DNA of 64,000 nt, taken from positions 96,001-160,000 of the forward strand of contig JBCCYL010000002.1 in assembly GCA_039189765.1 (NCBI GenBank), in the 5' to 3' direction. Under the pieces are notes generated by a model. That model did no database searches. It was not told where the DNA came from and was given only the letters and a program-made list of their open reading frames with translations. This document shows positions 16,245 to 64,000 of this stretch, piece after piece. Positions within the stretch are counted from its first letter, which is position 1; each line of letters opens with the position of its first letter. The translations under genes and the position numbers were made by a program. Source of the DNA: Cyanobacteria bacterium P01_F01_bin.150 (GTDB taxonomy: Bacteria > Cyanobacteriota > Cyanobacteriia > CAKZMO01).

Positions 16245-16448
16245 GGCAGGACAATAAACCCTTATGATGAGCTAGTGATAATAAACAGTTTGCGTCTAAT
16301 CTGCTCTCTCAACAAGGCGATCGCCTCCAGCAGACTGCTTACCATCAATTGTCGACTATTGTACTTTCGCTAGTGAAGTTTGTGGAGGTTTGCCACGGAA
16401 TCGCAACGTTCAGGCGAATTTGACACGGTGATCGGTATAAAAATAATT

Positions 16449-18393: not shown

Positions 18394-18612
18394 AGTTCAG
18401 GCTGGCTACATTACATTAACCTTGACGATTTTCCAGATACAAACATCCACCAAAAACTTCTGCCAAGTTAGCAGGTATCAGGAGTAGTGATGTTTACGAT
18501 GACTAGATATAGATTGGAGGCATCACAGCGTCACCGCAGACTAGCAATGTCGCTTTTTTCTCAATCACAATCCATAATTTTTACTTATTAAAAATACTGA
18601 AATGATAATTTT

Positions 18613-18652
18613 TGCCCTGAGGGGGGTGACACCCCCCACCCCCCTCAGGGCA
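18613..18652. repeat. GC-rich intergenic inverted repeat
   Basis: TGCCCTGAGGGGGG ... CCCCCCTCAGGGCA perfect 14-bp arms. Confidence 0.7.
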
Positions 18653-18919
18653 TACTATGTTAAGTAGATGCACCCTGATGGTTGGGAGAGTTTCCAAATG
18701 GCTCTCCCTTTTTTTACGTCTATAATATAGTCCGTTTGATCTATGCTTGCGAAGGGGCCTAATCATCGCACTTTTCAATAAGGCTGAACATAAGAGGGAT
18801 TTGTCCTGCTTGAAGCCCAGAGTGAGTACTTGCAGCATCTCAATTTCTGAATATCAGATTTCGCCAAGAAGCGAAAGACTACTAAAATGTAAAAAGTAAG
18901 TCTTTTGTGGGAAGCCTAA

Positions 18920-20416
18920 ATGTTTGACGCCTTATCGGAACGCCTTGAATCTGCCTGGAAAAGCTTGAGAGGTCATGACAAGATCTCTGACTCCAATATT
19001 CAAGATGCGCTGAGAGAGGTTCGACGCGCTTTGCTAGAGGCGGATGTCAACCTACAGGTGGTGAAAGGCTTCATTGCAGATGTGCAAGAAAAGGCTCAGG
19101 GCGCTGATGTTGTCGCAGGAGTACGTCCTGATCAGCAGTTCATCAAAATTGTTTATGACGAGCTGCTGAAACTGATGGGGGAAACTAATGCCCCTCTAGC
19201 CCATGCGGAATCAGCTCCTACCATAGTTTTGATGGCGGGACTGCAAGGAACGGGTAAAACCACCGCATCGGCCAAACTGGCGCTTCATCTCCGCAAGCAG
19301 AATCGTAGTTCTCTACTTGTCGCCACGGACGTTTACCGCCCTGCAGCAATTGATCAGCTACAAACCCTGGGGAAACAGATTAACATCCCGGTCTTTGACA
19401 TGGGGAGCGACGCTAATCCAGTAGAAATTGCTCGTCACGGTATAGAGAAAGCTAAAGCTGACGGCATTGACACAGTGATTATTGATACTGCCGGTCGCTT
19501 GCAGATTGATGCAGACATGATGGGAGAGCTAGCTGAAGTAAAGCGGGTTGCCAAGCCTGACGATGTCTTGCTAGTGGTTGATGCGATGACCGGTCAAGAG
19601 GCTGCCAACCTAACCCATACGTTTCACGACCAAATAGGCATCACTGGCGCTATCCTCACCAAGATGGACGGCGATACCCGAGGCGGAGCAGCCCTCTCCG
19701 TTCGCCAAATTTCAGGCCAACCCATTAAATTTATTGGGGTTGGAGAAAAGGTTGAAGCGCTTCAGCCGTTTTATCCCGATCGTATGGCATCCCGTATTTT
19801 GGGCATGGGGGATGTGCTAACTCTAGTTGAAAAGGCTCAAGAAGAGGTCGATTTTGCTGAAGCTGAGAAAATGCAAGAGAAAATTCTCTCTGCTCAGTTC
19901 GATTTCAACGATTTTCTTAAGCAGAGCCGTCTGATGAAGACCATGGGATCGTTTGGTGGTTTAGCCAAGATGATTCCTGGGATGAATAAGATTTCTGGTG
20001 ACCAGCTAGAAAAAGCAGAAGTGCAGCTTAAGCGGTGCGAGGCAATGATTGGTTCTATGACCGTAGAAGAGCGCCGCAATCCTGAGCTGCTATCTCAGTC
20101 TCCAAGTCGCCGTAAGCGTATCGCGAAGGGGTCAGGACATACCCTAAACGATGTTAGTAAGTTAGTAAGTGATTTTCAGAAGATGCGATCGCTCATGCAA
20201 CAGATGGGCCAGGGTAACTTTGGCATGCCAGGAATGGGCGGTGGTATGCCAGGAATGGGTGGTGGCATGCCGGGAATGGGTGGCCTCGGCAATATGTTTG
20301 GTGGCATGCCAGGGATGGGGGGAGGTGCTCAGCCAGGCTTTAGGGGATATCAAAACCCCATGTCTCGTAAGAAGAAGAAAAAAGCTAAGAAGAAAAAAGG
20401 ATTTGGCAGCCTTTAA
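18920..20416 (+). CDS. ffh: Signal recognition particle protein
   Basis: GLQGTGKTT, DTAGR, TKMDGD; M domain with GMPGMGG tail repeats. Confidence 0.98.
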   Translation: MFDALSERLESAWKSLRGHDKISDSNIQDALREVRRALLEADVNLQVVKGFIADVQEKAQGADVVAGVRPDQQFIKIVYDELLKLMGETNAPLAHAESAPTIVLMAGLQGTGKTTASAKLALHLRKQNRSSLLVATDVYRPAAIDQLQTLGKQINIPVFDMGSDANPVEIARHGIEKAKADGIDTVIIDTAGRLQIDADMMGELAEVKRVAKPDDVLLVVDAMTGQEAANLTHTFHDQIGITGAILTKMDGDTRGGAALSVRQISGQPIKFIGVGEKVEALQPFYPDRMASRILGMGDVLTLVEKAQEEVDFAEAEKMQEKILSAQFDFNDFLKQSRLMKTMGSFGGLAKMIPGMNKISGDQLEKAEVQLKRCEAMIGSMTVEERRNPELLSQSPSRRKRIAKGSGHTLNDVSKLVSDFQKMRSLMQQMGQGNFGMPGMGGGMPGMGGGMPGMGGLGNMFGGMPGMGGGAQPGFRGYQNPMSRKKKKKAKKKKGFGSL

Positions 20417-20744
20417 TGTTGCATTGACTTTAATATTCAGCAAAAGAGAGTATCAACTTTGGTTGGGTTGTGGGGCTGCGTCGCGCCCTCAGAAACGTTT
20501 ATATTTTTCGCCTTAAAGAAACCCGCAGAAAATCTTGTAAGATTTTCCACGCATTTGTAAGAGTTACTGATTAATTGGTTGAAGTTGCACGCCGAGCAGT
20601 GATATGATTTATAGCCTGCGTGTTTACGTAGCGTAGAAATTCTCATCATGGAGCGTCCTGCAACGGTCTAGTTCTTCGTTGTGTGCGTTGGAATGATGTT
20701 TCAAGTAATGCAATTTAGGTTTTTTAGGAGATAGTTTTCCGAAA

Positions 20745-48479: not shown

Positions 48480-49424
48480 ATGAGATCAAGGTTTTCCTCA
48501 GTGTCAAAAAAAATACAGAGTATTATCGGTCGATACATTCGGGTCAAGCCATTGCTCGCGTCATTTTCCATTGGTGCTACCGTAGCTTTTGCCCCTGTGT
48601 TTTTTTCTAGAGCATTGCAAGTTGGTGATAGTGGAGCAGGAGTTACGGAAGTTCAAGTGGCTCTGACGAATGCAGGGTATTATTCTGGGCCTATTTCTGG
48701 CTTTTATGGGGAGCTTACACAGGCTGCAATATTCAGGTATCAATTAGATAGAGGTCTATTTGTAGACGGAATAGCTGGCCCCAACACTTTATCCTCGCTT
48801 GGTTTGGATGATTTGGCTGAGAATAGTCGAATTGTTGGAGACTCTTCTAGTATTGATCGCAATAGAGTTGAAGACTTGCAAAGTAGATTACAAGTTGCAG
48901 GCTTCTACAGTGGTCCTATTGATGGTGAATATGGTTCGGCAACACGAGATGCTGTTTTCCAATTTGCAGAAAGGTATCTATTTACTATTCAAGAAGTAGA
49001 AAGAGCGCTTGGGTTGCCTGAAAGTGGTATCTATAGTGAAGAGATAAGGGATGCAATCATATCTTTTCAGATAGAAGAAGGTCTAGTCGCTGATGGTATT
49101 GTTGGTCCTGTAACCCGTGAGCGATTAGCTGCAAGATTAGCAGGTTTTAATCAATCTATTGTCAATGGCTACAGACCTCAAAGCAAATCTTTAGAGGATG
49201 AAATTCGTGAGTTTCAAGAAATGAACCGCCTAGAAGTTGATGGAATTATTGGCCGAGCAACCTTTGGCAGTCTCATCGAGCAAATTACTCGTTTTTCTGC
49301 AAAATCAGAGGAGCGGTTCCCTTCTTGTAACCCTGGCATAGCGTCGGGCAATTCATCTAACGGTGTTAAAGCCTTTTGCCTTTTCCAAGCAGTTATGCGA
49401 GAGGGGGTGCTGGGTATAAGTTAA
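48480..49424 (+). CDS. Peptidoglycan-binding domain protein
   Basis: Several PG_binding_1-like units (DGIAGPNT, DGIVGPVT, DGIIGRAT). Confidence 0.8.
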   Translation: MRSRFSSVSKKIQSIIGRYIRVKPLLASFSIGATVAFAPVFFSRALQVGDSGAGVTEVQVALTNAGYYSGPISGFYGELTQAAIFRYQLDRGLFVDGIAGPNTLSSLGLDDLAENSRIVGDSSSIDRNRVEDLQSRLQVAGFYSGPIDGEYGSATRDAVFQFAERYLFTIQEVERALGLPESGIYSEEIRDAIISFQIEEGLVADGIVGPVTRERLAARLAGFNQSIVNGYRPQSKSLEDEIREFQEMNRLEVDGIIGRATFGSLIEQITRFSAKSEERFPSCNPGIASGNSSNGVKAFCLFQAVMREGVLGIS

Positions 49425-49798: not shown

Positions 49799-50926
49799 TT
49801 AAGCTGCCAGTGCAGGATAATCAATATATCCTTCTGGCCCAGGGGTGTAGAAAGTATTTTGATCCGCTTCATTTAGGGCTGCACCCTGCTTAAATCGCTT
49901 TACCAGGTCAGGGTTAGAAATAAAAGGAATGCCATAGGCGATCGCATTCGCTTCCCCATTCCGAATTGCCGCAGCGCCCAAAGGCGCGTCATAGCCACCG
50001 TTCAAAATAATCGGACCGTTAAACTCGCGCTGCATATGAGGCGCAGCGCGCTCAACGCCTTCTACACTGAAGAAATGACCCGGCAACGGTTCCATAATAT
50101 GGAGATAGGCCAGATTAAACCGCCGTAGTTCTTGTGCAGCATAGGTAAATGTAGAAATGGGGGCACTATCGTTCATATCGTTAAACGGATTGTAGGGCGA
50201 TAATCGAACGCCAACGCGGTCATTACTCCATTCCTGCACCACGGCTTCAGTCACTTCCAATAAGAACCGAGCACGATTTTCCACCCTGCCACCATACACA
50301 TCAGTACGCTGGTTTGAGCCATCTCGCAGAAATTGGTCAATCAAATAGCCGTTGGCACCATGAATCTCTACGCCATCAAATCCAGCCAATTTTGCATTAC
50401 GAGTTGCCAAAACATACTGTTCAATCACCCCTAGAATTTCATCTAATCTCAGGGCACGAGGGGTTTCATGGGGCTTTTTACCACTGGGCGTATGAATTTC
50501 ACCGGCTGGCCGAATAGCCGAGGCCGATACTGGAAGTTGTCCTCCAGGCTGAAAATCCGGATGAGATGCTCGTCCCATATGCCATAGCTGAAGGACAATT
50601 TTTCCCCCTTTATGGTGAACCGCTTCGGTCACTGACTTCCATCCTTCCACTTGCTCTGGAGTGTGGATGCCAGGACTTTGATTCCAGCCTGCCCCCTGTT
50701 CCGATATTTGGGTAGCTTCCGAAATAATCAGACCAGCGCTGGCCCGTTGAGCATAATACTGGCGCATCAGATCATTGGGTATACGGGACACTCCCGCACG
50801 GCCACGGGTCAGAGGTGCCATAATCATCCGATTGGGAAGGGCGATCGCTCCCATTTGCAGGGGCTGGAATAGGGCGTCGAGGGAAGAATTAGATGAAGAA
50901 GGCGAGGAAGGTGTAGCGATAGACAT
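49799..50926 (-). CDS. Old yellow enzyme family alkene reductase (NemA-like)
   Basis: MAPLTRGRA, QLWHMGR, EIHGANGYLIDQF, FY...GYIDYP. Confidence 0.93.
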   Translation of the reverse strand: MSIATPSSPSSSNSSLDALFQPLQMGAIALPNRMIMAPLTRGRAGVSRIPNDLMRQYYAQRASAGLIISEATQISEQGAGWNQSPGIHTPEQVEGWKSVTEAVHHKGGKIVLQLWHMGRASHPDFQPGGQLPVSASAIRPAGEIHTPSGKKPHETPRALRLDEILGVIEQYVLATRNAKLAGFDGVEIHGANGYLIDQFLRDGSNQRTDVYGGRVENRARFLLEVTEAVVQEWSNDRVGVRLSPYNPFNDMNDSAPISTFTYAAQELRRFNLAYLHIMEPLPGHFFSVEGVERAAPHMQREFNGPIILNGGYDAPLGAAAIRNGEANAIAYGIPFISNPDLVKRFKQGAALNEADQNTFYTPGPEGYIDYPALAA

Positions 50927-51003
50927 GATGTCCTCCTTTGTTCATTTGTTCAATAATTTCGAACAATAGGACTATAGCGTATCCCTATGGCATAATGCAA
51001 GGT

Positions 51004-51327
51004 ATGAAACCGCTTTATCATCCAACCACTGATCAAATCACCCTAGCTGGCGTACTTTATGCTCTGGGAGACCCCGCTCGACTCCATATTGTTGAGCTGC
51101 TGGCCGCTGGAGACGAACAGCCTTGCAGCGCCTTTAATTGCAACTTGGCAAAATCGACCGTTTCCCATCACTTTAAAATTTTGAGGGAGTCAGGGGTTAT
51201 TTGTTCTCGTAAGGCAGGCACCCAGCATCTGAATTCACTGCGCCGAGATGACCTGGAGCAGCTGTTTCCAGGGCTTTTAGATGCTGTTCTTCACAATTGC
51301 AGCGTCTCTGCCCAGGAGTCGCCGTAA
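51004..51327 (+). CDS. ArsR/SmtB family transcriptional regulator
   Basis: ALGDPARL, KSTVSHHFKILRESG; divergent from the reductase. Confidence 0.9.
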   Translation: MKPLYHPTTDQITLAGVLYALGDPARLHIVELLAAGDEQPCSAFNCNLAKSTVSHHFKILRESGVICSRKAGTQHLNSLRRDDLEQLFPGLLDAVLHNCSVSAQESP

Positions 51328-53874: not shown

Positions 53875-53947
53875 TTCTTTAGAACAAGCCAGAGTTCATT
53901 AAGTTTGGTAACATTTGAGAGTTGTCTCTTGCTCTCACCATCTCCCC

Positions 53948-54502
53948 ATGAATCGATTCTGGTCCTTACTGACTACCTTTTTTATTAGCAGCACTTTAAT
54001 ACTGGGAGCTACTTTGATGGCTCCATCTTTGGCTTTGGCTTTGGGGGGTCCCCAGCCAGAGCTGAATCAATTAGCCCCTGATTTTACGCTGCCAACCAAC
54101 ACAGGAGACGGCTCCATCTCTTTGGATGATTATCGAGGAGAATGGGTTGTTGTGTATTTCTATCCTAAGGATTTCACTCCTGGATGTACATTAGAGGCCC
54201 GGCGTTTTCAACAGGACTTGCTGAAATATCAAAAGCGCAATGCCACTATTTTGGGCATTAGCGTGGATGATGTTGATTCCCATGCAGAGTTCTGTGATTC
54301 CGAAGGGTTAAAGTTTCCCCTGTTGGCTGATGTCGATGGAGCGGTTAGCAAATCCTACGGGTCTTGGCTAGGAATGAATTCCCTTCGCCACACCTATATT
54401 GTGGACCCCGATGGCCTTCTGCAGGCGCGATTTTTAGGGGTACAGCCTTCTGTTCATAGTCGTGAAGTTTTGAAGACTCTGGACAAACTACAAACGATTT
54501 AA
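53948..54502 (+). CDS. Peroxiredoxin (BCP/PrxQ)
   Basis: YFYPKDFTPGCTLEA. Confidence 0.92.
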   Translation: MNRFWSLLTTFFISSTLILGATLMAPSLALALGGPQPELNQLAPDFTLPTNTGDGSISLDDYRGEWVVVYFYPKDFTPGCTLEARRFQQDLLKYQKRNATILGISVDDVDSHAEFCDSEGLKFPLLADVDGAVSKSYGSWLGMNSLRHTYIVDPDGLLQARFLGVQPSVHSREVLKTLDKLQTI

Positions 54503-54579
54503 CTGGCCTATTTGGAGGGCGATGCCTGCTCTACGAGATGGCTAATTGGGCCTCTGGATTTATGGTTTGATTGAGCAAT

Positions 54580-54610
54580 AAGTGGAGCGATCGCCCCGAT
54601 CGCTCCACTT
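54580..54610. repeat. HIP1-containing hairpin upstream of the conflict operon
   Basis: AAGTGGAGCGATCG-CCC-CGATCGCTCCACTT. Confidence 0.7.
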
Positions 54611-54713
54611 GTTTATTCTCTGACGAGGGTGCTTTGATAAAAAAACGTCCAGATTCTGGGCAAAATCGCCTGTATCCACCAAAATAAATGAAGCTCCTTT
54701 TCCCTAGATAGAG

Positions 54714-56681
54714 ATGTCAAACTTTCGTGCAGTGATTCTTACCGCACTTCCTGTTGAATTTGAGTCTGTGCGAGAGTTCTTGCCTAAGAGTGAGGAAGTT
54801 TGTCATCCAGCCGGAAACATTTATGAGCGTGGGGAGTTCCAAGGGAATCACTGCCTCTGGGATGTGGGCATTGCAGAAGTGGGAATGGGAGATGCGGGAG
54901 CTGCTTTTGAGACGGAACGAGCGATCTCTTTTTTTAATCCCGACGTTATTTTATTTGTGGGGGTTGCAGGTGGAATCAAAGATGTTGAGATTGGAGATGT
55001 CGTTGCGTCCACCAAAGTTTATAACTATGAGTCTGGAAAGGCGAAAGAAACGTTTAATCCCCGACCAGAGACAGGATTAAGCTCCTATGCACTGATTCAG
55101 CGGGCTATGGCAGAGCGCCGAAGTCGTGGTCAGGAGTGGCTGAGCCGTCTTAAATCTAAGCCCCAAAAACTGCCTAAGGTGAAGGTCGGGCCGATCGCTG
55201 CTGGAGAGAAAGTGATTGCCTCTAAGAAATCAGAGGTATATAAGCTTGTGGAAAAGCAATATGGTGATGCTCTGGCGGTTGATATGGAGGGGTATGGCTT
55301 TCTAAAGGCCGCTCATGCCAATGAACATCGAGCCGTGGCAATGGTGGTGCGGGGTATTTCTGATCTAATTGAGGGCAAGAACGATGAGGAGAATCAGGAA
55401 CCAGAAGACATTCGCCAAGAAAAAGCATCTCGACATGCCAGTGCATTTGCATTCCAGCTACTGGCAAATTTCACCCCGCAAGGAAGGTTAATTGAGGCTC
55501 CCTCAGAGGCTCAGCAGGTATCACCTCAACCTTGGGATTCGCTCTTCAACAGTTTTGATAATGTTGATCCTGAAAGGCTTCAAACGTTTGCATCTTGCTT
55601 GGAAGAGGTATTGCCGCCTTTACAACGAGATCTTTTCCCGGAATTGAGTCAGAAGACGACGATGAATCTTAAAACACTTCTTTCTGTAGTGGAGCGTCTT
55701 AATAGTGTAGAGCGTCTTGATAGTGTGGGTCTGCTTGTGAAATGGGTAGAGCTTATTGTGCGTGAGCCAGAAGAGCGATCTGATGATGAATTATCGGGAC
55801 TTGGTTTATCTGATTTACAAGCATGGTGCGACAAACATCGTCCTTCTGTTAGGGAGCCAGAGCCAGAGCCGGAGCCAGAGAGATTGGAGTATCTGCTGAT
55901 TACCCTGGAACCCAGGGATGATGACGATACAGTGTTTCTGACCGCAGAAATTCAGGCTACGAATGGCAAGTTACTCAGTAATAATCTTTTGCCTCCGGGT
56001 CAAAAATGTTCTATCGATGACCCATCTGAATCGTTATCTGAAGCCATTAATAAAGCGGGGAAAGTTAAAGCCGTTGAAATTTTCTTATCATGGCGGCATT
56101 TTCGCAAACCAATTCATGAGTGGAAAATCAATCGAGGTTTGGACGATATACATCTGAACGTGTTCAGAAATGTATTGCTGCGATCGCTTGATAGGTGTCT
56201 AGAAAAGAAATACAAGTATTTGGTAGCTGAATGGACCGAAAGGCTCCGTAGTCAGTGGGAACAACTACCCTCCTGTGAGAATCGGGTCTTAGAAGATTAT
56301 TGCCATAATGTGACGGCGTTGGATTTGGATTTTTTAAGGAGTACCTTGGTCCCAGAAGAATCTAAATATCTGATTTTGCACTTCTTGGATGAACTGCCAG
56401 AAGAACTTGACGAGTTAAGGAAGCTAGTTAGTATCTTAATGGAGTCAGGCATTCCTATCTGCTTATGGCCGCGTGATGAGCCGATTCAATCTGAGAGCGT
56501 TCCAGAATCCCTTGCAACACTTCTTTGCGATATGAACGTGCTGCGCCAGCCAAGCCGCTTGGCGGCTAGTATTCGAAAACTCGATACTCCTTTGTCAAAT
56601 TTAGGTTTACTATGCGAGTGTCCTTACCGATTACCTGGTTTGGTGGATTGGAAAAGTGGCCGTTTGCGCCAGCCTGCTTAG
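54714..56681 (+). CDS. N-terminal PNP/MTA-SAH nucleosidase domain fused to a VMAP-like C-terminal region
   Basis: ILTALPVE, FVGVAGG, GDVV, DMEG, VRGISD; C-terminal YLLITLEP...VEIFL...GIPICLWPR...LLCECPYRLP; directly upstream of MoxR. Confidence 0.8.
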   Translation: MSNFRAVILTALPVEFESVREFLPKSEEVCHPAGNIYERGEFQGNHCLWDVGIAEVGMGDAGAAFETERAISFFNPDVILFVGVAGGIKDVEIGDVVASTKVYNYESGKAKETFNPRPETGLSSYALIQRAMAERRSRGQEWLSRLKSKPQKLPKVKVGPIAAGEKVIASKKSEVYKLVEKQYGDALAVDMEGYGFLKAAHANEHRAVAMVVRGISDLIEGKNDEENQEPEDIRQEKASRHASAFAFQLLANFTPQGRLIEAPSEAQQVSPQPWDSLFNSFDNVDPERLQTFASCLEEVLPPLQRDLFPELSQKTTMNLKTLLSVVERLNSVERLDSVGLLVKWVELIVREPEERSDDELSGLGLSDLQAWCDKHRPSVREPEPEPEPERLEYLLITLEPRDDDDTVFLTAEIQATNGKLLSNNLLPPGQKCSIDDPSESLSEAINKAGKVKAVEIFLSWRHFRKPIHEWKINRGLDDIHLNVFRNVLLRSLDRCLEKKYKYLVAEWTERLRSQWEQLPSCENRVLEDYCHNVTALDLDFLRSTLVPEESKYLILHFLDELPEELDELRKLVSILMESGIPICLWPRDEPIQSESVPESLATLLCDMNVLRQPSRLAASIRKLDTPLSNLGLLCECPYRLPGLVDWKSGRLRQPA

Positions 56682-56703
56682 CCCTATATGTTTTGTAAGT
56701 TCT

Positions 56704-57918
56704 ATGTCTAACTGGAAATTTTTTACTGGTCAACTAAAGCAAGATAATACGCCTCGGCAATCTCCATTGGAGCCAATTGGGGAGCGACCGGCTTGGCGGC
56801 AGTTTATGGCTAAGGACGAGTTTGAAAAAACGTGGGCAAAGGCAAGTAAGGCTCGATGGAAGGCATTGCGGAGTGAGGGGCGACTGGACACGCGATCACG
56901 AGAAAAGGGGCAGAGCTTTCGGATTCGGCAAATGGATAATGGCCAGTCTGAGATTCAGACGGCGGTGAATTCGGCATTGGCTTTGCGGCGTCCACTATTG
57001 ATTACGGGCAATCCAGGGTCGGGGAAGACATCGTTGGCCTATGCGATCGCCTACGAACTCAATCTAGGCCCTGTCTTGCTATGGCCCATTACTACCCGCA
57101 CCAGGTTATCGGATGCGCTCTATCAGTATGATGCGATCGCCCGTTTGCAGGATACTCAGTTTGATAAGGCGGAACTGGAGTTACAACTGCTATTGGCGAA
57201 GGCGGACGATAAAACGCCAGATCGCACCAAAATCGAAGCGCTTAAAAAAGGCCGCAACCTGGGCGATTATATTCAGCTTGGGCCCGTGGGAACTGCGTTT
57301 CTGCCGTCCCATTTACCCCGTGTGTTGTTAATTGACGAGATTGACAAGAGCGAGTTAAACCTGCCCAATGATCTGCTGAATTTGTTTGAGGAAGGCAGCT
57401 ACAACATTCCAGAATTGGCCCGACAAAAGAGTAGTGCAAAGGTGTCGGTGCGGACGGCAGATGATGAGCTATCGGCGGATATTGTTAAGGGCAAGGTGAC
57501 CTGTTACGAATTTCCATTGGTTATTTTGACCAGTAATGGGGAACGGGACTTTCCTCCAGCGTTTCTGCGTCGCTGTTTGCGGATTAATATGCCTGACCCC
57601 ACGGAAAGTGATGTGCTGGAGCGTATTGTTGGGGCACACTTTGAATGCGCTGAACATCTGGAGGGAGAGCGTTCCTGGCCTGAATTAAAAGAGGATATTC
57701 GACCGCTGATTGAGGCGTTTGCTAAGGACCTTGGACGCAAGAAATCGTCTTTAGCGACGGATCAACTGCTGAATTTAATCTATATGGTGCGTCAGTCCCA
57801 AATTAGTGTCACTGAGGCCATGGGTGATGAGAGCCAGCACAAGGAAAAAACAGCGGAATTAGACACTCTCAAAGCCATCTTGCTGCGTCGTCTCACAGGG
57901 GAAGCGGGTCGCAAATGA
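56704..57918 (+). CDS. MoxR family AAA+ ATPase
   Basis: LRRPLLITGNPGSGKT, LLIDEIDK, TSNGERDFPPAFLRRC. Confidence 0.92.
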   Translation: MSNWKFFTGQLKQDNTPRQSPLEPIGERPAWRQFMAKDEFEKTWAKASKARWKALRSEGRLDTRSREKGQSFRIRQMDNGQSEIQTAVNSALALRRPLLITGNPGSGKTSLAYAIAYELNLGPVLLWPITTRTRLSDALYQYDAIARLQDTQFDKAELELQLLLAKADDKTPDRTKIEALKKGRNLGDYIQLGPVGTAFLPSHLPRVLLIDEIDKSELNLPNDLLNLFEEGSYNIPELARQKSSAKVSVRTADDELSADIVKGKVTCYEFPLVILTSNGERDFPPAFLRRCLRINMPDPTESDVLERIVGAHFECAEHLEGERSWPELKEDIRPLIEAFAKDLGRKKSSLATDQLLNLIYMVRQSQISVTEAMGDESQHKEKTAELDTLKAILLRRLTGEAGRK

Positions 57919-60854
57919 GCACAGAGCAGTTTGTCGCAGCATTGAGTGAGTGTGACCTCAATCCCACAGAGATCGCGGATATTCTCTGGCTAGCGCTGCG
58001 TCAACTGGATTCTGCTGAGCAATTTGGTGAGGATAAGACTAATGATGGCCAGGAGGATGGGGCTAGAGGCGATGATGGCCAGGAGGATGGGGCTGGAGAC
58101 GATGATGGCCAGGAGGATGAGGCTGGAGACGATGATGGCCAGGAGGATGAGGCTGGAGACGATGATAGCCAGGAGGATGGGGCTGAAGACGATGATGGCC
58201 AAAACGCTGTAGAAGATGGCGCGGCTGGTGGTGATCTTCCCCCTGGCGATGACGATGAAGAAGAGAGCGGAGAAGAAACCGGGGACGAGGATAAGGATGA
58301 CGGCTCTGACCAACAGTCGTCCTTTGATATTGCTGCACAGGATGCTTCGGGGGTCTTGCCAGAAAAAGCGGTCCCCATTTCGGTTCCTGATGCAGGTTTT
58401 CTAGAGGAAACGTTACCGCTGGTGCGGGCCTTGCGACCCATCCTAAAGCAAATTGCCTCTGAGACCGTTAGCTATGTGGATGAGGCGGCAACGGTGGATC
58501 GGATTGCGGAGACAAATATCTGGTCGCCGGTGCTGCAACCGGATTATGAACCGTGGTTTGATGTAGCCTTTGTAATCGATAGCAGTGCTTCCATGCATTT
58601 ATGGGAGCGGTTGATTCAGGATATTCAGCGGTTGTTGCGCTGCTATGGGTCATTTCGAGACTTTCGAGTTTGGCAGTTGAAGGTGACAGAAGGCCAGGTG
58701 GGTATTTGTGCGGTGCCGGATCAGGTTATGCGCCATCCAAGGGCGTTGCTTGCGCCGGATGGTCGTCGGCTGACGTTGGTGTTTAGTGACTGTACGGCGG
58801 AATATTGGTGGGATGGAACGCTTCAGCCGATGCTGGCCCTGTGGGGAGAGTCCATGCCGACATCAATTTGGCAGGTGCTGCCCGATTGGATGTGGAAGCG
58901 TACGGCGTTGGGGGTTGGGGAGTATGTGGCGATTCGAAATCGGATTCCTGGGGCGACAAATGGAGAGCTAAACCCGATCTTTTTATCATTACGTCCATCG
59001 ATTTTATCGCCAGCGGAGCCGTCTCAGGCGGCAGATAGTTTGGTTGGGGCTTCACCAGCTAAGCCGATTTGTGTGCCTGTGATTACTACGGAGTCCGAGT
59101 CCCTGAGTGCTTGGAGTCGAATGGTGGCAGGGGATCGGCGGTCGTCAACGCCGGGGTTTGTGTTGCCGGAGAGGGGCTGGGAGAAGGAGCGGCCAACGCC
59201 ATCAGATGATTTACAAGGGGATGCCGATCAGCAAGAGGTTGCAGACCAACAGTTGGAGCAATTTCGCTTACGAGCGACCCCTGAGGCCCGTCGATTGGCG
59301 GCGTTATTATCGGCTGCGCCGGTGATTACCTTGCCGATTATGCGGTTGATTCGAGCGTCCATGTTGTCTGGCACGTCTCCATTGCCGGTGGCTGAGGTCT
59401 TTTTAGGCGGGTTGTTAAAGCGGACATCCACCCCAGGGCAGACGCCAGATAAGCCGATAGATACTGAGCTGGTCCAGTATGATTTGCCGATTGAAACGCG
59501 GAATCGCCTGTTGGATGTGTTGCCAAAGGTGGAGGCGATTGAGGTGATCGAGGCGGTGTCCCAACATATTTCTGAGCAGTTGGGGCTGACTCTGATGGAT
59601 TTTCGGGCATTGCTGTTATCTCTTGACTTAAAACAGGAGGCGGATCAGTATGACCTAAAAGCGTTTGCCCGTGTGACGGCCCAGATTTTACGAAAGTTGG
59701 GGAAGGAGTATGCGGCCTTAGCGGACCAATTTGAGGTTCCTCTGGAGCCTGATATCCCTCGGACACAGAAATGGTTGGATCTGCCCCTGGAGGAGTTTGA
59801 GCACGAATCGGCTAGGCTTGTGGCTTTGCCTAGTGAGCCGAGGGCGATCGCCCTTACCATAGTTACGTTAAGCATTCAGCCAGACTATGCTGCGGGGCTG
59901 GAAGAGGTGGAAGACCGTCAGGCTGAAGTTGTGACGCTGGTGGTTGACGAAGCAGAGCAACCATCAGTATTTGATCAGTTAGAACCGTTTCCAATTCAGA
60001 TTGCAACGGTTGAACGTCAAGGGTCTGAGTGGGTGGTTAACTATACCGAATCAGAGGCCGATCGCTATATTGAGACCTTGCCAGGGGGAATTTCTTTGGA
60101 ATTAGCAAGGATTCCATCTGGGGGCTTTATGATGGGGGCACCAGAGGATGAACCAGAGCGCCATGGGCGGGAAACTCAGCATCGAGTGACGATCGCTTAT
60201 GACTTTTTGATGGGGCGCTATCCCGTGACTCAGGCTCAGTGGCGGGTGGTTGCATCCTCCCTGCCTCAGATTGTTCGGAATCTAAAACCAGCCCCATCTA
60301 AATTTAAAGAGGAGAAGCGTCCGGTTGAACGAGTCAGTTGGCATGAGGCGATAGAGTTTTGTAATCGCCTTAATCGCTATTTTGAGGGGCGCTCTATCCC
60401 GGAGGGGTACGAATATCGCTTACCGAGCGAAATTGAATGGGAATATGCCTGTCGTGCAGAAACCACTACTCCCTTTTATTTTGGGCCAATGATTACGACC
60501 GAGGTAGCAAATTATAGCGGTAGCTCCTATGACGATGGACCTACTGGAAAAAGGCGAGGAGAAACCACCCCAGTTACCGAGTTTAACCATGCCAATCAAT
60601 TTGGCCTATCGGATATGCATGGCAATGTTTGGGAATGGTGCTTAGATGAGTGGTGGCATCAGAATTACAGGGGTGCCACCCTCGATGGCAGTACGTGGCT
60701 AGAGAACACCCCACAAAGTAATAATAGGCATGTTAGGCGTGGCGGGTCTTGGATCTCTCGTCCGAGGTACTGTCGGTCTGCCTATCGTCTCCACGACCAC
60801 TCCGACCTTCGCTCCGACTCTCTTGGTTTTCGGGTTGTTCTCGCCCCTCAATGA
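57915..60854 (+). CDS. vWA (SAV_2336-like) protein with C-terminal FGE-sulfatase/CLec-fold domain
   Basis: EIADILWLA, VDEAATV, MIDAS DSSAS, VFSDC; C-terminal YRLPSEIEWEYACRA, DMHGNVWEW, RGGSW...GFRVV; ATGA overlap with MoxR stop. Confidence 0.88.
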   Translation: MSTEQFVAALSECDLNPTEIADILWLALRQLDSAEQFGEDKTNDGQEDGARGDDGQEDGAGDDDGQEDEAGDDDGQEDEAGDDDSQEDGAEDDDGQNAVEDGAAGGDLPPGDDDEEESGEETGDEDKDDGSDQQSSFDIAAQDASGVLPEKAVPISVPDAGFLEETLPLVRALRPILKQIASETVSYVDEAATVDRIAETNIWSPVLQPDYEPWFDVAFVIDSSASMHLWERLIQDIQRLLRCYGSFRDFRVWQLKVTEGQVGICAVPDQVMRHPRALLAPDGRRLTLVFSDCTAEYWWDGTLQPMLALWGESMPTSIWQVLPDWMWKRTALGVGEYVAIRNRIPGATNGELNPIFLSLRPSILSPAEPSQAADSLVGASPAKPICVPVITTESESLSAWSRMVAGDRRSSTPGFVLPERGWEKERPTPSDDLQGDADQQEVADQQLEQFRLRATPEARRLAALLSAAPVITLPIMRLIRASMLSGTSPLPVAEVFLGGLLKRTSTPGQTPDKPIDTELVQYDLPIETRNRLLDVLPKVEAIEVIEAVSQHISEQLGLTLMDFRALLLSLDLKQEADQYDLKAFARVTAQILRKLGKEYAALADQFEVPLEPDIPRTQKWLDLPLEEFEHESARLVALPSEPRAIALTIVTLSIQPDYAAGLEEVEDRQAEVVTLVVDEAEQPSVFDQLEPFPIQIATVERQGSEWVVNYTESEADRYIETLPGGISLELARIPSGGFMMGAPEDEPERHGRETQHRVTIAYDFLMGRYPVTQAQWRVVASSLPQIVRNLKPAPSKFKEEKRPVERVSWHEAIEFCNRLNRYFEGRSIPEGYEYRLPSEIEWEYACRAETTTPFYFGPMITTEVANYSGSSYDDGPTGKRRGETTPVTEFNHANQFGLSDMHGNVWEWCLDEWWHQNYRGATLDGSTWLENTPQSNNRHVRRGGSWISRPRYCRSAYRLHDHSDLRSDSLGFRVVLAPQ
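58041..58201 (+). repeat. 30-bp coding tandem repeat (DDGQEDGAGD), about 5.3 copies
   Basis: GATGATGGCCAGGAGGATG(G/A)GGCTGGAGAC units. Confidence 0.9.
60738..60854 (+). other. Putative DGR variable region VR-A
   Basis: 117-bp scaffold shared with the other FGE 3' ends; differences mainly at codon positions 1-2 of NNC/NNT codons. Confidence 0.75.
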
Positions 60855-60925
60855 CTCCTTTTGTAATTTGCCTTATTTCATTTTATTTTCTACATATAAA
60901 AATAATAAAATCTCATTGATTAGAA

Positions 60926-61762
60926 ATGGCGACATCCTCCAGTACGGCTCCTAGGAAAATTCGGGAAGAACGTGAGACGACGACGTTTCGGTTTGGGCAA
61001 GAGCGGTTGAATGATGAGGTTCTGCTGAATTTGGTGCGGATTCTGGCTGGGGGTTTCATTATGGGGTCGCCAGAGGGAGAAGAGGGGCGTTCTGATGCTG
61101 AAGGTCCTCAGCGCTTGGTGTCAGTGTCGGAGTTCTGGATGGGGCAGTATCCCGTGACTCAGCAAGAATGGCGGATTGTGGCTGGATATACCAAGGTTGA
61201 ACGAGATATGGAGCTTGACCCATCTCATTTTAAGGGAGGCCGTCGTCCGGTCGAGAGAGTATCCTGGGATGATGCGGTGGAGTTTTGTCAACGCCTCTCG
61301 CAGCATACAGGCCGTAACTACCGCTTACCTTCGGAAGCTGAATGGGAATATGCCTGTCGGGCGGAAACTAAGACCCCCTTTCATTTGGGTCTAACCCTTT
61401 CAGCCAAATACTCTAACTACGACGCCAGGGAAGTGTATGGTCTTGGGACACAGGGAGAATATCGAAGGGGAACTGTGGATGTAGATCACTTTCAGGTGAC
61501 CAATAACTTTGGATTGGTCGGGATGCATGGCAATGTGTGGGAATGGTGCCAGGACCACTGGCATGAAAGCTATAAGGGTGCCCCCCTCAATGGTAGTGCA
61601 TGGATGGAGAACACCTCACATAGTAAGAATAGGGACTGCGTATTTCGTGGCGGGGCTTGGTTAACTCGTCCGAGAGACTGTCGGTCTGCCTTTCGTGGCC
61701 ACAATCTTCCCGCCTATCGCCGCCGCAATCTCGGTTTTCGGGTAGTTCTCGCCCCCCAATGA
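60926..61762 (+). CDS. Stand-alone FGE-sulfatase/CLec-fold protein (putative DGR target; VR 61646-61762)
   Basis: FIMGS, YPVTQ, YRLPSEAEWEYACRA, MHGNVWEW, RGGAW...GFRVVLAPQ. Confidence 0.9.
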   Translation: MATSSSTAPRKIREERETTTFRFGQERLNDEVLLNLVRILAGGFIMGSPEGEEGRSDAEGPQRLVSVSEFWMGQYPVTQQEWRIVAGYTKVERDMELDPSHFKGGRRPVERVSWDDAVEFCQRLSQHTGRNYRLPSEAEWEYACRAETKTPFHLGLTLSAKYSNYDAREVYGLGTQGEYRRGTVDVDHFQVTNNFGLVGMHGNVWEWCQDHWHESYKGAPLNGSAWMENTSHSKNRDCVFRGGAWLTRPRDCRSAFRGHNLPAYRRRNLGFRVVLAPQ

Positions 61763-61799
61763 CTCCTTTGCTTTTTCTTTTTTGTCTTTTTGCCTTTGC

Positions 61800-61858
61800 C
61801 CCGGTGCCCAGACTCTGGCTCCCGGAGCATTCCCAGCCAGAGTCTGGGAATCAGGGGG
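61800..61858. repeat. REP-like palindromic repeat, short copy
   Basis: GGTGCCCAGACTCTGGCT ... CATTCCCAGCCAGAGTCTGGGAAT. Confidence 0.65.
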
Positions 61859-61878
61859 ATCAGAGGGGCGGCTGAGGA

Positions 61879-62007
61879 TCAGGCATCAAGCAAGTCAAAC
61901 AGAATCTGCACCAGTTTAGGAGCGCTAAAAATTGGAATCCATTTGGTGGTTGTGCAGGTGACAAAGTGGGGCTGGTTGCCCACAGTCCGATATTGAGAAC
62001 GATCCAT
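61879..62007 (-). pseudogene. Truncated REP-associated tyrosine transposase (RAYT) N-terminal fragment
   Basis: MDRSQYRTVGNQPHFVTCTTTKWIPIFSAPKLVQILFDLL resembles RAYT N-termini (HF.TCT...W.P.F); stops before the HUH motif; flanked by REP-like repeats. Confidence 0.65.
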
Positions 62008-62099
62008 ACTGAAGATTAAATAATGTGGTCTTAACGTTCCCAATTGAATTGGAAGATTGCATACTGAAAGGCAGATATGTTCGCATTCCTCCAGTCCAC

Positions 62100-62210
62100 C
62101 CTGGTGCCCAGACTCCGGCTGGGTGCAATGGACGAGACTCTGGCTCGTCTGCCTTTGTTTTTGGAGCCGGAGTCTCCAAGAGGATTCCCAGCTAGAGTCT
62201 GGGAATGAGG
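62100..62210. repeat. REP-like palindromic repeat, long copy
   Basis: GGTGCCCAGACTCCGGCTGGG...GAGACTCTGGCTC...GAGCCGGAGTCTC...TTCCCAGCTAGAGTCTGGGAAT nested inverted repeats. Confidence 0.65.
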
Positions 62211-62248
62211 TGTGTAAGAGTTGTAAGTTGATTGGAGTATTCCCTTCA

Positions 62249-63100
62249 ATGGTTGTTTTCATCCCCAAAAAACGAACGCACACCGACCAGCGCTTTTTTG
62301 AAGCCTTGGGGAATAACCAACGATTGGAAATGGTGTTAATTCAGGAGGGAACCTTTACGATGGGATCTCCTGATAATGAGGAAAAACGCAGAGATGCGGA
62401 AGGTCCACAGCGTGAGGTAACGGTTTCAACTTTTCTGATGGGCCGTTATCCCGTGACCCAATCCCAGTGGCGGCAAGTGTCTAAATTTGACCCCGTTGAC
62501 CCGGATATTGAATTTCCCCCTAATCCATCTCGCTTCAAGAATAAGCAAGATAGCGATCATCGTCCGGTGGAGCAGGTGAATTGGCATCAGGCCAATGAGT
62601 TCTGTGCTCGCCTCAATCAGTTTCTTGAATCCCGCTCCAGCACTCCATTGAATCGAGCCTATCGCTTACCGTCCGAAGCAGAGTGGGAATATGCTTGTCG
62701 AGCTGGAACTACCACTCCTTTTTATTGCGGCGAAACCATCTCCACAGACGTCGCCAATTATGATGGCAACTACACCTACGGTAGAGGGCCAAAAGGCCGA
62801 TATCGAGAAGAAACTACCCCTGTCGGCTCTTTGGAGTCTGGCAATTCCTGGGGACCGTGTGATATGCATGGCAATGTTTGGGAATGGTGCCAAGACCACT
62901 GGCATGAAAATTACAAGTATGCCCCCCTCGATGGCAGTGCATGGCTGGAGAACACCCCACAAAGTGAGAATAGGCGGGTGAACCGTGGCGGGTCTTGGCT
63001 CGCTCGTCCATGGTTCTGTCGGTCTGCCTGTCGCAACCGCTACCACCCCGACGGTCGCGACGCCTATCTTGGTTTTCGTGTTGTTCTCGCCCCCCAATGA
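62249..63100 (+). CDS. Stand-alone FGE-sulfatase/CLec-fold protein (putative DGR target; VR 62984-63100)
   Basis: Likely start MVVFIPKKR after GGAG; FTMGS, YRLPSEAEWEYACRA, RGGSW...GFRVVLAPQ. Confidence 0.9.
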   Translation: MVVFIPKKRTHTDQRFFEALGNNQRLEMVLIQEGTFTMGSPDNEEKRRDAEGPQREVTVSTFLMGRYPVTQSQWRQVSKFDPVDPDIEFPPNPSRFKNKQDSDHRPVEQVNWHQANEFCARLNQFLESRSSTPLNRAYRLPSEAEWEYACRAGTTTPFYCGETISTDVANYDGNYTYGRGPKGRYREETTPVGSLESGNSWGPCDMHGNVWEWCQDHWHENYKYAPLDGSAWLENTPQSENRRVNRGGSWLARPWFCRSACRNRYHPDGRDAYLGFRVVLAPQ

Positions 63101-63206
63101 TTCCCCTTTGCCATCTGCTTTTTTGCCTTTCGCTTTCTTCAAGAAATATTCAGTTAAACCTTTCGATAAATTAACTAGAAATTATTCAGAGTAAAATCCT
63201 TCGCCG

Positions 63207-64000
63207 ATGGTTTCCTCCCCTCCCACCGAATCCAATCCCAAATGCCATATTGACCGAGAACCGATTGAGGTGATATCGGTTCAGCAGCCGTTAAATAACG
63301 ACGTGAGTTTGGTCTTGGTGCAGATTCCAGAGGGGGATTTTATGATGGGGTCCCCAGAAGATGAACTCGAACGAAGCGATGCAGAAGGGCCGCAGCACCC
63401 GGTGCATATTCAGGAATTTTGGATGGGGCAATATCCCGTAACCCAGGCAGAATGGCGCATTGTGGCCAGCTATCGCAAAGTAAACCATGACTTAGCGGCT
63501 GCCCCCTCCGAATTCAAAGGAGATCGATTGCCCGTCGAGAACGTGTCTTGGGATGATGCGGTGGAGTTTTGTCAGCGCCTCTCCCAAAACACCGGATTGA
63601 ACTATCGCCTCCCCACCGAAGCCGAATGGGAATACGCCTGTCGAGCTAAAACCACAACCCCCTTCCATTTTGGCAAAACCATCACCACTGAGTATGCCAA
63701 CTATCGAGGAACCGATGATGAGTATGGAAATTCTGGTTCCTATGGGGGTGGCCCCAAAGGGGGCTATCGAGAGGAAACAACTTCTGTAGGCTCCTTTGAG
63801 GTCACTAACCACTTTGGCCTTGCCGATATGCACGGCAATGTGTGGGAGTGGTGCCAGGACCACTGGCATGACAACTATAAGGATGCCCCCTCCGATGGCA
63901 GTGCTTGGCTGGGCAACACCCCACAAAGTATTAATATGCGTGTAATTCGTGGCGGGTCTTGGCTCGATCGTCCATGGTACTGTCGGTCTGCCTATCGTGG
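63207..64000 (+). CDS. Stand-alone FGE-sulfatase/CLec-fold protein, truncated by window end (VR begins 63948)
   Basis: Manual translation MVSSPPTESNPK...FMMGSPEDE...YRLPTEAEWEYACRA...DMHGNVWEW...RGGSWLDRPWYCRSAYR; not in the ORF track because no stop lies in the window. Confidence 0.9.
   Translation, partial: MVSSPPTESNPKCHIDREPIEVISVQQPLNNDVSLVLVQIPEGDFMMGSPEDELERSDAEGPQHPVHIQEFWMGQYPVTQAEWRIVASYRKVNHDLAAAPSEFKGDRLPVENVSWDDAVEFCQRLSQNTGLNYRLPTEAEWEYACRAKTTTPFHFGKTITTEYANYRGTDDEYGNSGSYGGGPKGGYREETTSVGSFEVTNHFGLADMHGNVWEWCQDHWHDNYKDAPSDGSAWLGNTPQSINMRVIRGGSWLDRPWYCRSAYR

Follow-up and report, generated by a model that had tools for sequence, protein, structure and literature searches.

A nucleosidase-VMAP, MoxR and vWA-FGE operon of a cyanobacterium as a candidate lectin-sensing conflict system

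What kind of system is formed when a nucleosidase, a MoxR-like AAA+ ATPase and a row of lectin-fold proteins are encoded side by side, and how might such parts work together? The question is raised by a 64,000-nucleotide stretch of Cyanobacteria bacterium P01_F01_bin.150 (GenBank assembly GCA_039189765.1, contig JBCCYL010000002.1, positions 96,001 to 160,000 of the forward strand), here called the window, in which six co-directional plus-strand genes occupy positions 54714-64000 in the order nucleosidase-VMAP, MoxR-like AAA+ ATPase, vWA-FGE and three stand-alone FGE genes (FGE, formylglycine-generating enzyme family). Gene 1, the nucleosidase-VMAP gene (54714..56681, 655 residues; PNP_UDP_1 and VMAP-C matches), stops with TAG at 56679-56681, and 22 nt later the ATG at 56704 opens gene 2, the ATPase gene (56704..57918, 404 residues; AAA_5 match). 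The start of gene 3, which encodes the vWA-FGE protein (57915..60854, 979 residues; SAV_2336_NTERM and FGE-sulfatase matches), overlaps the stop of gene 2 by 4 nt (ATGA). The stand-alone FGE genes, recognized by Pfam, follow on the same strand at 60926..61762 (FGE gene 2, 278 residues), 62057..63100 (FGE gene 3) and 63207..64000 (FGE gene 4, interrupted by the window end). An earlier note, made from the letters alone, had described a packed co-directional operon with a 22-bp gap, an ATGA overlap and at least three FGE genes, and each of these features was found in place on the plus strand.

Our analysis indicates that the locus is almost certainly a VMAP-type MoxR-vWA ternary conflict system, most likely acting as an abortive-infection-type anti-phage module. 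To the best explanation taken as a whole, a VMAP ternary system with lectin sensors and a nucleosidase effector released by MoxR, we give an even chance.

Class assignment and the nucleosidase

VMAP ternary systems were delineated by Kaur et al. (2020, eLife, PMC7159879). The portions of that paper available to us describe a strict gene order (VMAP > MoxR > vWA), a tripartite VMAP protein composed of an N-terminal enzymatic or adaptor domain, an all-helical middle and a VMAP-C domain, and a MoxR protein with the N-terminal motifs WxhapG and PsWRxa. The vWA domain is said there to have aspartates ending core strands 1 and 4, flanking helical extensions and variable domains C-terminal to it, with an N-terminal helix motif [D/E]xxx[D/E]xxxa of three-residue spacing. 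The same portions already describe both PNPase-VMAPs and cyanobacterial vWA-FGS fusions with diversity-generating retroelements (DGRs), and they report a DGR link for about 80% of cyanobacterial systems. The window shows the gene order, the tripartite VMAP, the VMAP-C domain, the MoxR motifs and the two vWA aspartates at strand ends, that is, nearly all the written features of the class, and the earlier assignment to a VMAP / MoxR / vWA-FGE ternary conflict class thus stands. Likeness extends to the helical extensions, the FGS/FGE domain fused to vWA and the PNPase class of N-terminal domain; unlike the published systems, the window has no template repeat or reverse transcriptase, and the spacing of its vWA helix motif is two residues rather than three.

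The VMAP-like C-terminus predicted for the protein starting at 54714 was supported by both profile and structure. A VMAP-C domain was matched at residues 440-617 (56031..56564, plus strand; Pfam PF20028) with 53.5 bits against a cut-off of 27, in a partial match covering profile positions 42-200 of 226. The AlphaFold2 (AF2) model of gene 1 (mean pLDDT 70.1, pTM 0.43) contains a nucleosidase fold, helices at residues 271-375 and an alpha+beta region at about 392-634. The helices, delimited by DSSP, form an all-helical middle region in the VMAP-M position (55524..55838, plus strand); no Pfam VMAP-M family matched this part of the protein.

Gene 2 matched AAA_5 with an E-value of 7e-9, and the match spreads 193 residues over 137 profile positions, indicating that an insert is present. 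Its protein begins M-S-N-W4 and carries W4-K-F-F-T-G9 and P29-A-W-R-Q-F34, matching WxhapG and PsWRxa. Both motifs also occur in the ATPases of the related loci L002, L009 and L047, all of which adjoin vWA homologues, and are absent from five other AAA+ genes that lie near FGE genes without a vWA partner. The Walker A motif spans G102-T109, Walker B ends in D211-E212, sensor-1 is T276-S-N278 and a pair of arginines follows at R289-R290. Across nine aligned ATPases, G102, G105, G107 and K108 of Walker A, D211-E212, T276-S277-N278 and R289-R290 are invariant. A profile built from these nine sequences found the midasin AAA domains as its best matches in the PDB (1.7e-13), followed by Cdc48/p97-type proteins.

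The vWA domain that the earlier note had expected in gene 3 was recovered in part. NCBIfam SAV_2336_NTERM matched with 368 bits against a cut-off of 200, placing at residues 84-557 (58164..59585, plus strand) a SAV_2336 N-terminal domain composed of a divergent vWA domain and a helical C-terminal extension, and its two aspartates D222 and D292 are invariant; Pfam, in turn, found no vWA domain in gene 3, and no fold match reached E ≤ 0.001. The metal-site residues are D222-S-S224-A-S226 (58578-58592, plus strand) and D292 (58788-58790, plus strand). Among 43 homologues of the vWA region, D222 and D292 are each kept in 43/43, S224 in 23/43 and S226 in 30/43; the window retains the full D-S-S-A-S motif, and the family is looser. 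In an AF2 model of residues 140-700 (mean pLDDT 70.5, pTM 0.60), D222 and D292 stand directly after strands sub77-82 and sub146-152. The best fold matches of this model were the collagen VI vWA domain (7e-3), the NorD VWA domain from the NorQ complex (9e-3), CMG2 and the MIDAS domains of MDN1/Rea1 (E-values to 6e-2).

The N-terminal helix of the vWA-FGE protein has a conserved E19-x-x-D22-x-x-W25 (family consensus TEIAExLW), the motif with two-residue spacing. This helix is joined to the vWA domain by an acidic linker, an acidic tandem repeat of a 30-nt unit in about 6-7 copies (58012..58231, plus strand; found by repeat scan and translation) that encodes the decapeptide D-G-Q-E-D-G/E-A-G-D-D. 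The number of repeats may vary between strains, because the orthologue in Leptolyngbya cf. ectocarpi LEGE 11479 is 81 residues shorter. At its C-terminal end, residues 732-975 (60108..60839, plus strand) form an FGE-sulfatase domain with a C-type-lectin fold (Pfam, E 3e-45). Against the PDB, the stand-alone protein of FGE gene 2 matched PvdO (9e-32), FGE (about 5e-19) and Treponema TvpA (2.4e-15). Other architectures, fused or swapped, were seen among the homologues (P0138, P0141 and P0135): Acaryochloris has vWA-FGE proteins of 1201 residues with an added VMAP-C domain, and a vWA homologue of Leptolyngbya sp. PCC 7375 ends in a Csx3 domain in place of FGE.

The effector candidate is the PNP-family nucleosidase domain at residues 6-243 of gene 1 (54729..55442, plus strand; Pfam PNP_UDP_1, E 1.3e-26). 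Its residues E15, M191-E192 and D217 align with Glu12, Met173-Glu174 and Asp197 of 5'-methylthioadenosine/S-adenosylhomocysteine (MTA/SAH) nucleosidases (MTANs), and together with S216, which precedes D217, they supply the MTAN-equivalent catalytic set. Across 42 homologues, M191, E192 and S216 are invariant, and E15 and D217 are kept in at least 90%; judged by this alignment, the catalytic residues are intact. The gene 1 model superposes on MTAN structures, with 4x24_A as the best Foldseek match (E 2.2e-13, TM-score on target 0.68). A fold search with the whole PNP-VMAP model returned at least 500 matches, and those listed were all MTA/SAH or futalosine nucleosidases, which makes the listed matches uninformative on the fold of VMAP-C.

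Despite this fold, the domain appears distinct from the housekeeping enzyme MtnN, because the NCBIfam MtnN model (NF004079) scored 71.7 bits against a cut-off of 169; likewise, TIGR01704 gave 33 against 73.8. In pairwise BLAST comparisons, E. coli MtnN reached E 0.003 over 93 residues and DeoD E 0.004, and the PNP domain of a PNP-SAVED protein from a Nostoc plasmid, whose gene adjoins one annotated as a CBASS oligonucleotide cyclase, reached E 1.9e-25 at 37% identity. The PNP domains that end two operons, called Detocs-like from their architecture only, gave 31% (E 1e-21) and 25% (E 4.6e-17). By these scores, the nucleosidase seems much nearer to the PNP domains of CBASS- and Detocs-type operons than to MtnN or DeoD.

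The PNP domains of Cap17 (CBASS) and DtcC (Detocs) cleave ATP and dATP, causing abortive infection, and the Fig. 2B legend of the same report names NLR, TPR and FGE-S partners for the Cap17 clade (Rousset et al. 2023, bioRxiv 10.1101/2023.01.24.525353, in the part available to us). Like them, the window protein has a PNP_UDP_1 fold, an aspartate-dependent active site, in which we infer D217 to be the equivalent of Cap17 D472 or DtcC D353, and relatives fused to NLR-like, TPR and FGE-S partners; Cap17 and DtcC differ in their activation, which depends on a cyclic nucleotide or on phosphotransfer and involves no MoxR-vWA pair. Among the 120 best homologues listed, AAA_16/NB-ARC, TIR/SEFIR, TPR or FGE domains are found as fusion partners of this PNP module (about 60% identical), PF01048 and PF20028 occur together in 46 (the window protein counted), and PNP and FGE share one polypeptide in five (P0057, P0083, P0104, P0106 and P0113).

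The VMAP tail and the vWA metal site

How might the nucleosidase be held in check? A candidate answer lies in the conserved C-terminal tail of gene 1, residues 640-655 (56631..56678, plus strand; located by alignment and models), which ends ...GRLRQPA. L651, R652 and P654 are kept in at least 90% of 42 subfamily sequences, most of which read GRLRQPAA or a near variant, and the tail is disordered in the monomer model (pLDDT < 50). The window's C-terminus as a whole reads ...LLCECPYR-x12-RLRQPA-COOH; across the family, a CDCPxR-type motif precedes a tail of 14-32 residues that often closes with LxxP-small. A similar layout recurs in 50 distant VMAP-C proteins drawn from 1.84 billion representatives: a CDCPxR-type motif lies 14-32 residues from the C-terminus in 37/50, and LxxP falls within the last seven residues in 17/50, compared with 45/2000 random internal positions.

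For the complex prediction, a VMAP part (residues 260-655) and a vWA-protein part (residues 140-609) were modelled together in three runs, with a separate alignment for each partner. The pair scored 0.80, and the best of three controls scored 0.00. The mark used for this score was reached by 116/157 solved complexes and 2/215 mismatched pairs, counts that are rough because the alignments were made for this analysis. The runs agreed in at least 78% of contacts, with partner pLDDT values of at least 76. In the pairs with the lowest expected error, VMAP residues L651, R652, Q653 and P654 contact the metal site (S224-S226 and D292), an invariant LPxWMWKRT loop and the conserved helix that follows the vWA domain. 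These predictions support rather than demonstrate binding of the gene 1 VMAP part to the vWA protein with the tail in the metal-site pocket. A docking role would fit a tail that is disordered alone, strongly conserved and marked by a recurrent LxxP ending.

We tentatively propose, as one possibility that we consider less probable than not, that the tail is the long-postulated peptide captured by the metal-site pocket, and that it serves as a latch holding an ATP-destroying nucleosidase inactive on a DGR-shaped lectin sensor until MoxR pulls the tail out. A generic form of this idea, in which vWA captures a peptide and MoxR releases it altered, was put forward by Kaur et al. (2020, PMC7159879, in the sections available to us). 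The VMAP tail is not named there, and 'C-terminal tail' and 'extreme C-termin' have 0 occurrences in the text. NorQ-NorD, RavA-ViaA and midasin-MIDAS offer parallels in that an AAA_5 / helix-2-insert AAA+ protein is paired with a metal-site vWA domain that captures a peptide; the NorD VWA domain and the MDN1/Rea1 MIDAS domains were among the best vWA fold matches, and midasin was the top ATPase profile match. Unlike the window system, however, these pairs assemble or mature enzymes or ribosomes, and the similarity is weak (fold E 7e-3 to 6e-2). What the window adds to such a pair is a third dedicated partner, VMAP, with an enzyme as cargo and hypervariable lectin domains.

The FGE array, related cassettes and surroundings

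Repeat-family comparison identified the four FGE genes of the window, the vWA-FGE gene included, as paralogues, and each contains a segment resembling a DGR variable region: 60738..60854 at the 3' end of gene 3 (identified by codon comparison and template-repeat alignment), 61646-61762 in FGE gene 2, 62984-63100 in FGE gene 3 and from about 63946 in FGE gene 4, all on the plus strand. In the three complete FGE genes, variable sites at codon positions 1/2/3 number 103/98/156 over 223 codons, compared with 13/11/11 over the last 39 codons. Over most of its length, the FGE domain diverges as in ordinary paralogues. Towards the 3' end, the third base is unchanged in 12/16 variable-residue codons of the last 38 codons, compared with 19/136 upstream, and synonymous differences in conserved-residue codons fall to 6/21 in the final segment from 48/86 upstream (Fisher p 0.03). 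This NNY-type pattern looks like the trace of repeated replacement from one adenine-rich template.

Template repeats of related loci align to exactly these 3' segments. The repeat carried by plasmid pREB2 of Acaryochloris marina MBIC11017 mismatches three of the window segments at 20/29, 22/29 and 15/23 adenines, compared with 14/69, 13/69 and 12/56 other bases, and the repeat of locus L002 gave similar figures. On the codon and alignment evidence, the array thus consists of DGR-type targets. A cognate template was sought within the 64-kb window by adenine-bias self-BLAST and by BLAST with seven foreign repeats and the pREB2 repeat, and none was found; an nhmmer profile of six template repeats found the four variable-region-like segments alone. 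No RVT_1 match was obtained in the 36 of 40 upstream open reading frames (ORFs) of at least 120 residues that were scanned (four overlapping alternative frames excluded), and tblastn with the reverse transcriptase and Avd of L002 found nothing in the window. Of the 'diversified receptor array' described in the earlier note, the codon signature of variable regions therefore holds, and the cognate template repeat, reverse transcriptase and Avd do not lie in the window.

With no local DGR parts found, diversification may have ended, or it may rely on a reverse transcriptase encoded far away. One could accordingly regard the array as a fossil or trans-dependent set of DGR targets with fixed sensor specificities, much like an innate receptor family that arose by gene duplication. 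This is a minority possibility in our view, yet a substantial one: all three DGR parts are missing both from the window and from the Leptolyngbya locus described below, the template repeat of pREB2 is accompanied by nothing more than an Avd fragment, with no nearby reverse transcriptase, and the window segments also differ at non-adenine template positions (12-14 of 56-69). Against it, the window stops inside the fourth FGE gene and a DGR cassette may follow just beyond, as Avd, reverse transcriptase and template repeat are placed between FGE genes in L002. In addition, template repeats lie 'elsewhere in the genome' for some systems (Kaur et al., PMC7159879, in the sections available), and the unchanged third base in 12/16 variable codons argues for fairly recent homing from one template.

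Co-conservation of the cassette was examined as the earlier note had suggested, and the gene order recurs in two relatives. A search with the fourth FGE protein, at one genome per species, gave 75 loci with a best match of 70% identity. Only one of them, L022 from Leptolyngbya cf. ectocarpi LEGE 11479, holds all three core genes as close homologues (PNP domain 59%, VMAP part 44%, ATPase 71% and vWA region 62% identical), with one FGE gene after the core genes and another before. Its MoxR-like gene (6023-7226) is divided between two ORFs, 6023-6445 and 6504-7226, by a frameshift or stop in the gene or else through faulty assembly. The same cassette was found by tblastn of the nucleosidase domain against plasmids on pREB2 (locus L077, NC_009927.1, AM1_RS31470 to AM1_RS31440), which is typed as conjugative and where the cassette adjoins a MobF relaxase gene. 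Its genes are annotated as MTA/SAH nucleosidase, AAA family ATPase, SAV_2336 N-terminal domain-related protein and FGE family proteins. Between the window and these two relatives, PNP domains are 58-60% and the vWA region 62% identical. As an indirect indication of co-location, 16/28 closest vWA-region homologues (P0122-P0149) agree with a listed PNP-VMAP homologue in the length of their longest contig.

All three cassettes combine PNP-VMAP, an AAA+ ATPase and a SAV_2336-N-terminal/vWA-FGE protein followed by FGE genes, and they differ in their outfit. Upstream, the two relatives carry one more FGE gene together with a gene for a 184-residue membrane protein, which the window lacks; downstream FGE genes are more numerous in the window (at least three); L022, unlike the window, has its ATPase in two ORFs, and pREB2, unlike the window, has a template repeat with four variable regions and an Avd fragment. 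Mismatches at adenines between the pREB2 repeat (L077:21900-22022) and the four variable regions of its neighbouring FGE genes are 18/21, 20/23, 14/18 and 11/15. The repeat overlaps a small gene annotated 'hypothetical protein', and Avd is present only as a 34-residue fragment on the opposite strand beside it (L077 21685-22022). The membrane protein, predicted from sequence, is encoded divergently just upstream of PNP-VMAP (L022 3355-3909, minus strand; L077 13347-13901, minus strand) and is 66% identical between the two loci. No Pfam family, SLATT included, reached E ≤ 1 with it, an Atlas search returned unnamed integral-membrane clusters only, and the cassette may use it as an accessory or effector component. 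The genes next to the cassette differ among the window, L022 and pREB2, as expected of a mobile module.

Locus L002 has the order integrase, TIR protein, VMAP, MoxR, vWA-FGE, FGE, Avd, reverse transcriptase, template repeat, FGE and WYL regulator. The DGR-coupled VMAP system at 1782-20628 of this locus is complete, and the phage-type integrase, TIR-domain protein and WYL/HTH regulator on its flanks give it the appearance of an integrated defence island. Doré et al. (2024, PNAS, PMC10907252) describe comparable loci, Thiohalocapsa DGR 4, 5 and 7 and the cyanobacterial clade 5E, in which a vWA protein with a lectin-fold DGR target stands beside MoxR and VMAP. In the part of that paper available to us, these loci, unlike the window, have reverse transcriptase and template repeat in place; the examples given carry trypsin-like peptidase, TIR or adaptor domains, and 0 occurrences of 'nucleosidase' were counted in the paper's main text.

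At the upstream edge of the operon, an AhpC-type peroxiredoxin gene (53915-54502) is separated from gene 1 by a terminator-like hairpin of 17 perfect pairs (54577..54613, plus strand; from a scan and the sequence, by consensus match only), built around two GCGATCGC palindromes. We take this octamer to be the HIP1 repeat of cyanobacteria. The hairpin is likely the upstream edge of the transcription unit because of its place between the peroxiredoxin gene and the operon. Co-transcription was inferred from spacing only, because neither terminator-like sites (13, mean of shuffles 10.5) nor promoters (6, mean of shuffles 9.8) exceeded shuffled sequence in the region. For gene 2, a longer frame from the GTG at 56656 is unlikely to be used because the ATPases of relatives likewise start MSN...W. 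FGE gene 3 opens with TTG at 62057, and its true start is most likely the ATG at 62249, which gives 283 residues, because nothing in the paralogues corresponds to the first 64 residues of the long frame. In the spacer between FGE genes 2 and 3 (61763-62248, 486 nt), a palindrome-rich element is present twice, at about 61803-61865 and 62103-62220. The equivalent spacer of pREB2 carries the template repeat and the Avd fragment, and the window spacer carries neither. A minus-strand ORF at 61879-62283 was considered as an Avd remnant and rejected, since bAvd gave no match at E ≤ 1 and tblastn with L002 Avd was negative.

Elsewhere the window consists of ordinary cyanobacterial chromosome, whose genes include Ycf54, DUF1830, PucC and SRP54, and an Rfam search of the whole window found no family at threshold. 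GC content (0.48-0.55 in the operon, 0.32-0.50 upstream) was discarded as a sign of transfer because the background is too variable. Further upstream lie a gene for an 889-residue TPR-repeat protein (45368-48037, minus strand) within a low-GC stretch (0.32-0.36, compared with 0.45-0.55 nearby) and a gene for a protein with four PG_binding_1 repeats (48480-49424, plus strand). The latter adjoins a divergent pair encoding an Old-Yellow-Enzyme-type flavin oxidoreductase and an ArsR-family regulator (49799-51327).

A sensor-to-effector model and its rivals

How could these parts form a working system? In the model that we favour, the lectin-fold (FGE) domains would sense ligands in the cytoplasm; the translated lectin-fold proteins show no evident signal peptide or membrane segment. 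At rest, the nucleosidase-VMAP protein would be held on the vWA protein through its VMAP-M and VMAP-C surfaces, with its tail in the metal-site pocket. Ligand binding would cause the MoxR ring to spend ATP on remodelling or releasing the VMAP-vWA complex, and the freed nucleosidase domains would then assemble. Enzymes of the PNP fold act as oligomers. Once assembled, the nucleosidases would cleave adenine from ATP and dATP as Cap17 and DtcC do, and the infected cell would be arrested.

The mechanism outlined in the earlier note, in which hypervariable lectin domains sense invaders and MoxR/vWA remodelling releases the nucleosidase, is not new. It corresponds to the alternative model of Doré et al. 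(2024, PNAS, PMC10907252), which states, in the part available to us, that the lectin domain senses, MoxR relays and the N-terminal domain of VMAP executes. We favour this sensor-to-effector order because the nucleosidase is kin to ATP-depleting effectors, direct PNP-FGE fusions exist and the enzyme is predicted to be tethered to the sensor. All three grounds are indirect, and we put the chances of the mechanism at about half. Expression as a unit has some precedent, since a transcriptome study found CHAT, MoxR and VWA genes co-expressed with a DGR target in Nostoc punctiforme (PMC12691664, in the part available).

The main rival is the model of Kaur et al. (2020), in which the nucleosidase frees a base from a nucleotide and so makes a second messenger, the hypervariable FGS/lectin domains fused to the vWA protein are effectors that directly bind invader molecules and neutralize them, and MoxR-vWA sets the threshold. 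The available sections of their paper class the PNPase among 'nucleotide-derived signal' domains and FGS as cyanobacterial 'primary effectors' (PMC7159879). The lectin domains lack a separate enzymatic partner, and the 184-residue membrane protein encoded divergently beside gene 1 in L022 and pREB2, with its 66% identity, could be a signal-gated effector. Yet the window lacks this membrane gene, and for its product no Pfam match, to SLATT or otherwise, was obtained at E ≤ 1. The related PNP domains of CBASS and Detocs, moreover, are terminal ATP-depleting effectors, not signal makers (bioRxiv 10.1101/2023.01.24.525353, as far as available), and PNP-FGE fusions suit a sensor-effector pair better than two effectors. 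On balance, we consider this rival unlikely, though it deserves to be taken seriously.

A location on a conjugative plasmid beside a relaxase gene in A. marina and varied neighbourhoods elsewhere, both typical of mobile defence modules, speak against a function outside anti-phage defence, namely signalling within filaments for self/non-self or developmental purposes (such as kin recognition, or programmed cell death during differentiation) with endogenous lectin ligands. So do the kinship of the nucleosidase with domains of CBASS- and Detocs-type operons and the L002 system, surrounded by an integrase, a TIR protein and a WYL regulator. Such signalling, which we regard as improbable, has its basis in earlier speculation on roles in transducing signals and in cell death for the cyanobacterial DGRs of this clade (Doré et al., PMC10907252, in the part available) and in the housekeeping genes that flank the window operon, with no phage or defence gene adjoining. 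An ordinary metabolic role, as an MTA/SAH nucleosidase of methionine salvage accompanied by FGEs for sulfatase maturation, is suggested by homologue names ('5'-methylthioadenosine/S-adenosylhomocysteine nucleosidase' and 'formylglycine-generating enzyme family protein') and by the MTAN fold and catalytic residues. It is effectively refuted, and we give it hardly any weight: the MtnN model scored far below its cut-off (71.7 bits against 169) and E. coli MtnN aligned over 93 residues only at E 0.003, a VMAP-M/VMAP-C part of 400 residues is fused to the enzyme, the ORFs scanned include no sulfatase gene, and the four tandem FGE paralogues have their variation confined to NNY codons.

Several observations weigh against the sensor-to-effector model or the evidence on which we base it. 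Literature searches turned up no bench test of any VMAP ternary system, and the system is not a catalogued defence system, PADLOC having no model for the vWA-FGE or FGE proteins. A PADLOC match of the nucleosidase to PN-superfamily effectors was rejected as proof of immune function because E. coli MtnN scores as well (54.6 bits, compared with 51.9 for the window domain). In a PNP tree of 18 rows, Cap17 and DtcC not among them, branches are long and the deep forks do not resolve, for which reason we used pairwise scores alone for kinship. The gene 2 ATPase found no match in the PDB by phmmer, and RavA, CbbQ and NorQ are absent among the 60 best ATPase profile matches. The fold search with the vWA model returned 0 Foldseek matches at E ≤ 0.001, and phosphoribosyltransferases are mixed among its best matches. 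The complex model used unpaired alignments and left MoxR out.

The locus itself adds further points of this kind. The window flanks are housekeeping genes with no defence island among the ORFs scanned. Template repeat, reverse transcriptase and Avd are all absent from the 64-kb window and likewise from 14 kb around the L022 cassette, and the 28.8 kb of pREB2 contain no reverse transcriptase. Nothing visible links the stand-alone FGE proteins to MoxR or vWA. Finally, the 184-residue membrane protein gene is missing from the window and kept in both syntenic relatives, where its product could be the true downstream effector.

VMAP ternary systems with DGR-diversified lectin sensors have been proposed as an immune-like layer of multicellular bacteria that works by anticipatory receptor variation. 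The locus leaves this concept unchanged and provides a complete, compact example whose output enzyme has an established assay, namely cleavage of ATP and dATP with release of adenine. With this assayable output and a falsifiable interface between tail and vWA pocket, the subtype is a practical entry for a first mechanistic study, and the pREB2 cassette of A. marina MBIC11017, which has a template repeat with four targets, is a named starting material for it. If true, the tail latch would give VMAP ternary systems their first structural mechanism, and the operon would encode a programmable immune switch from sensor to ATP depletion, with adenine release as a simple read-out.

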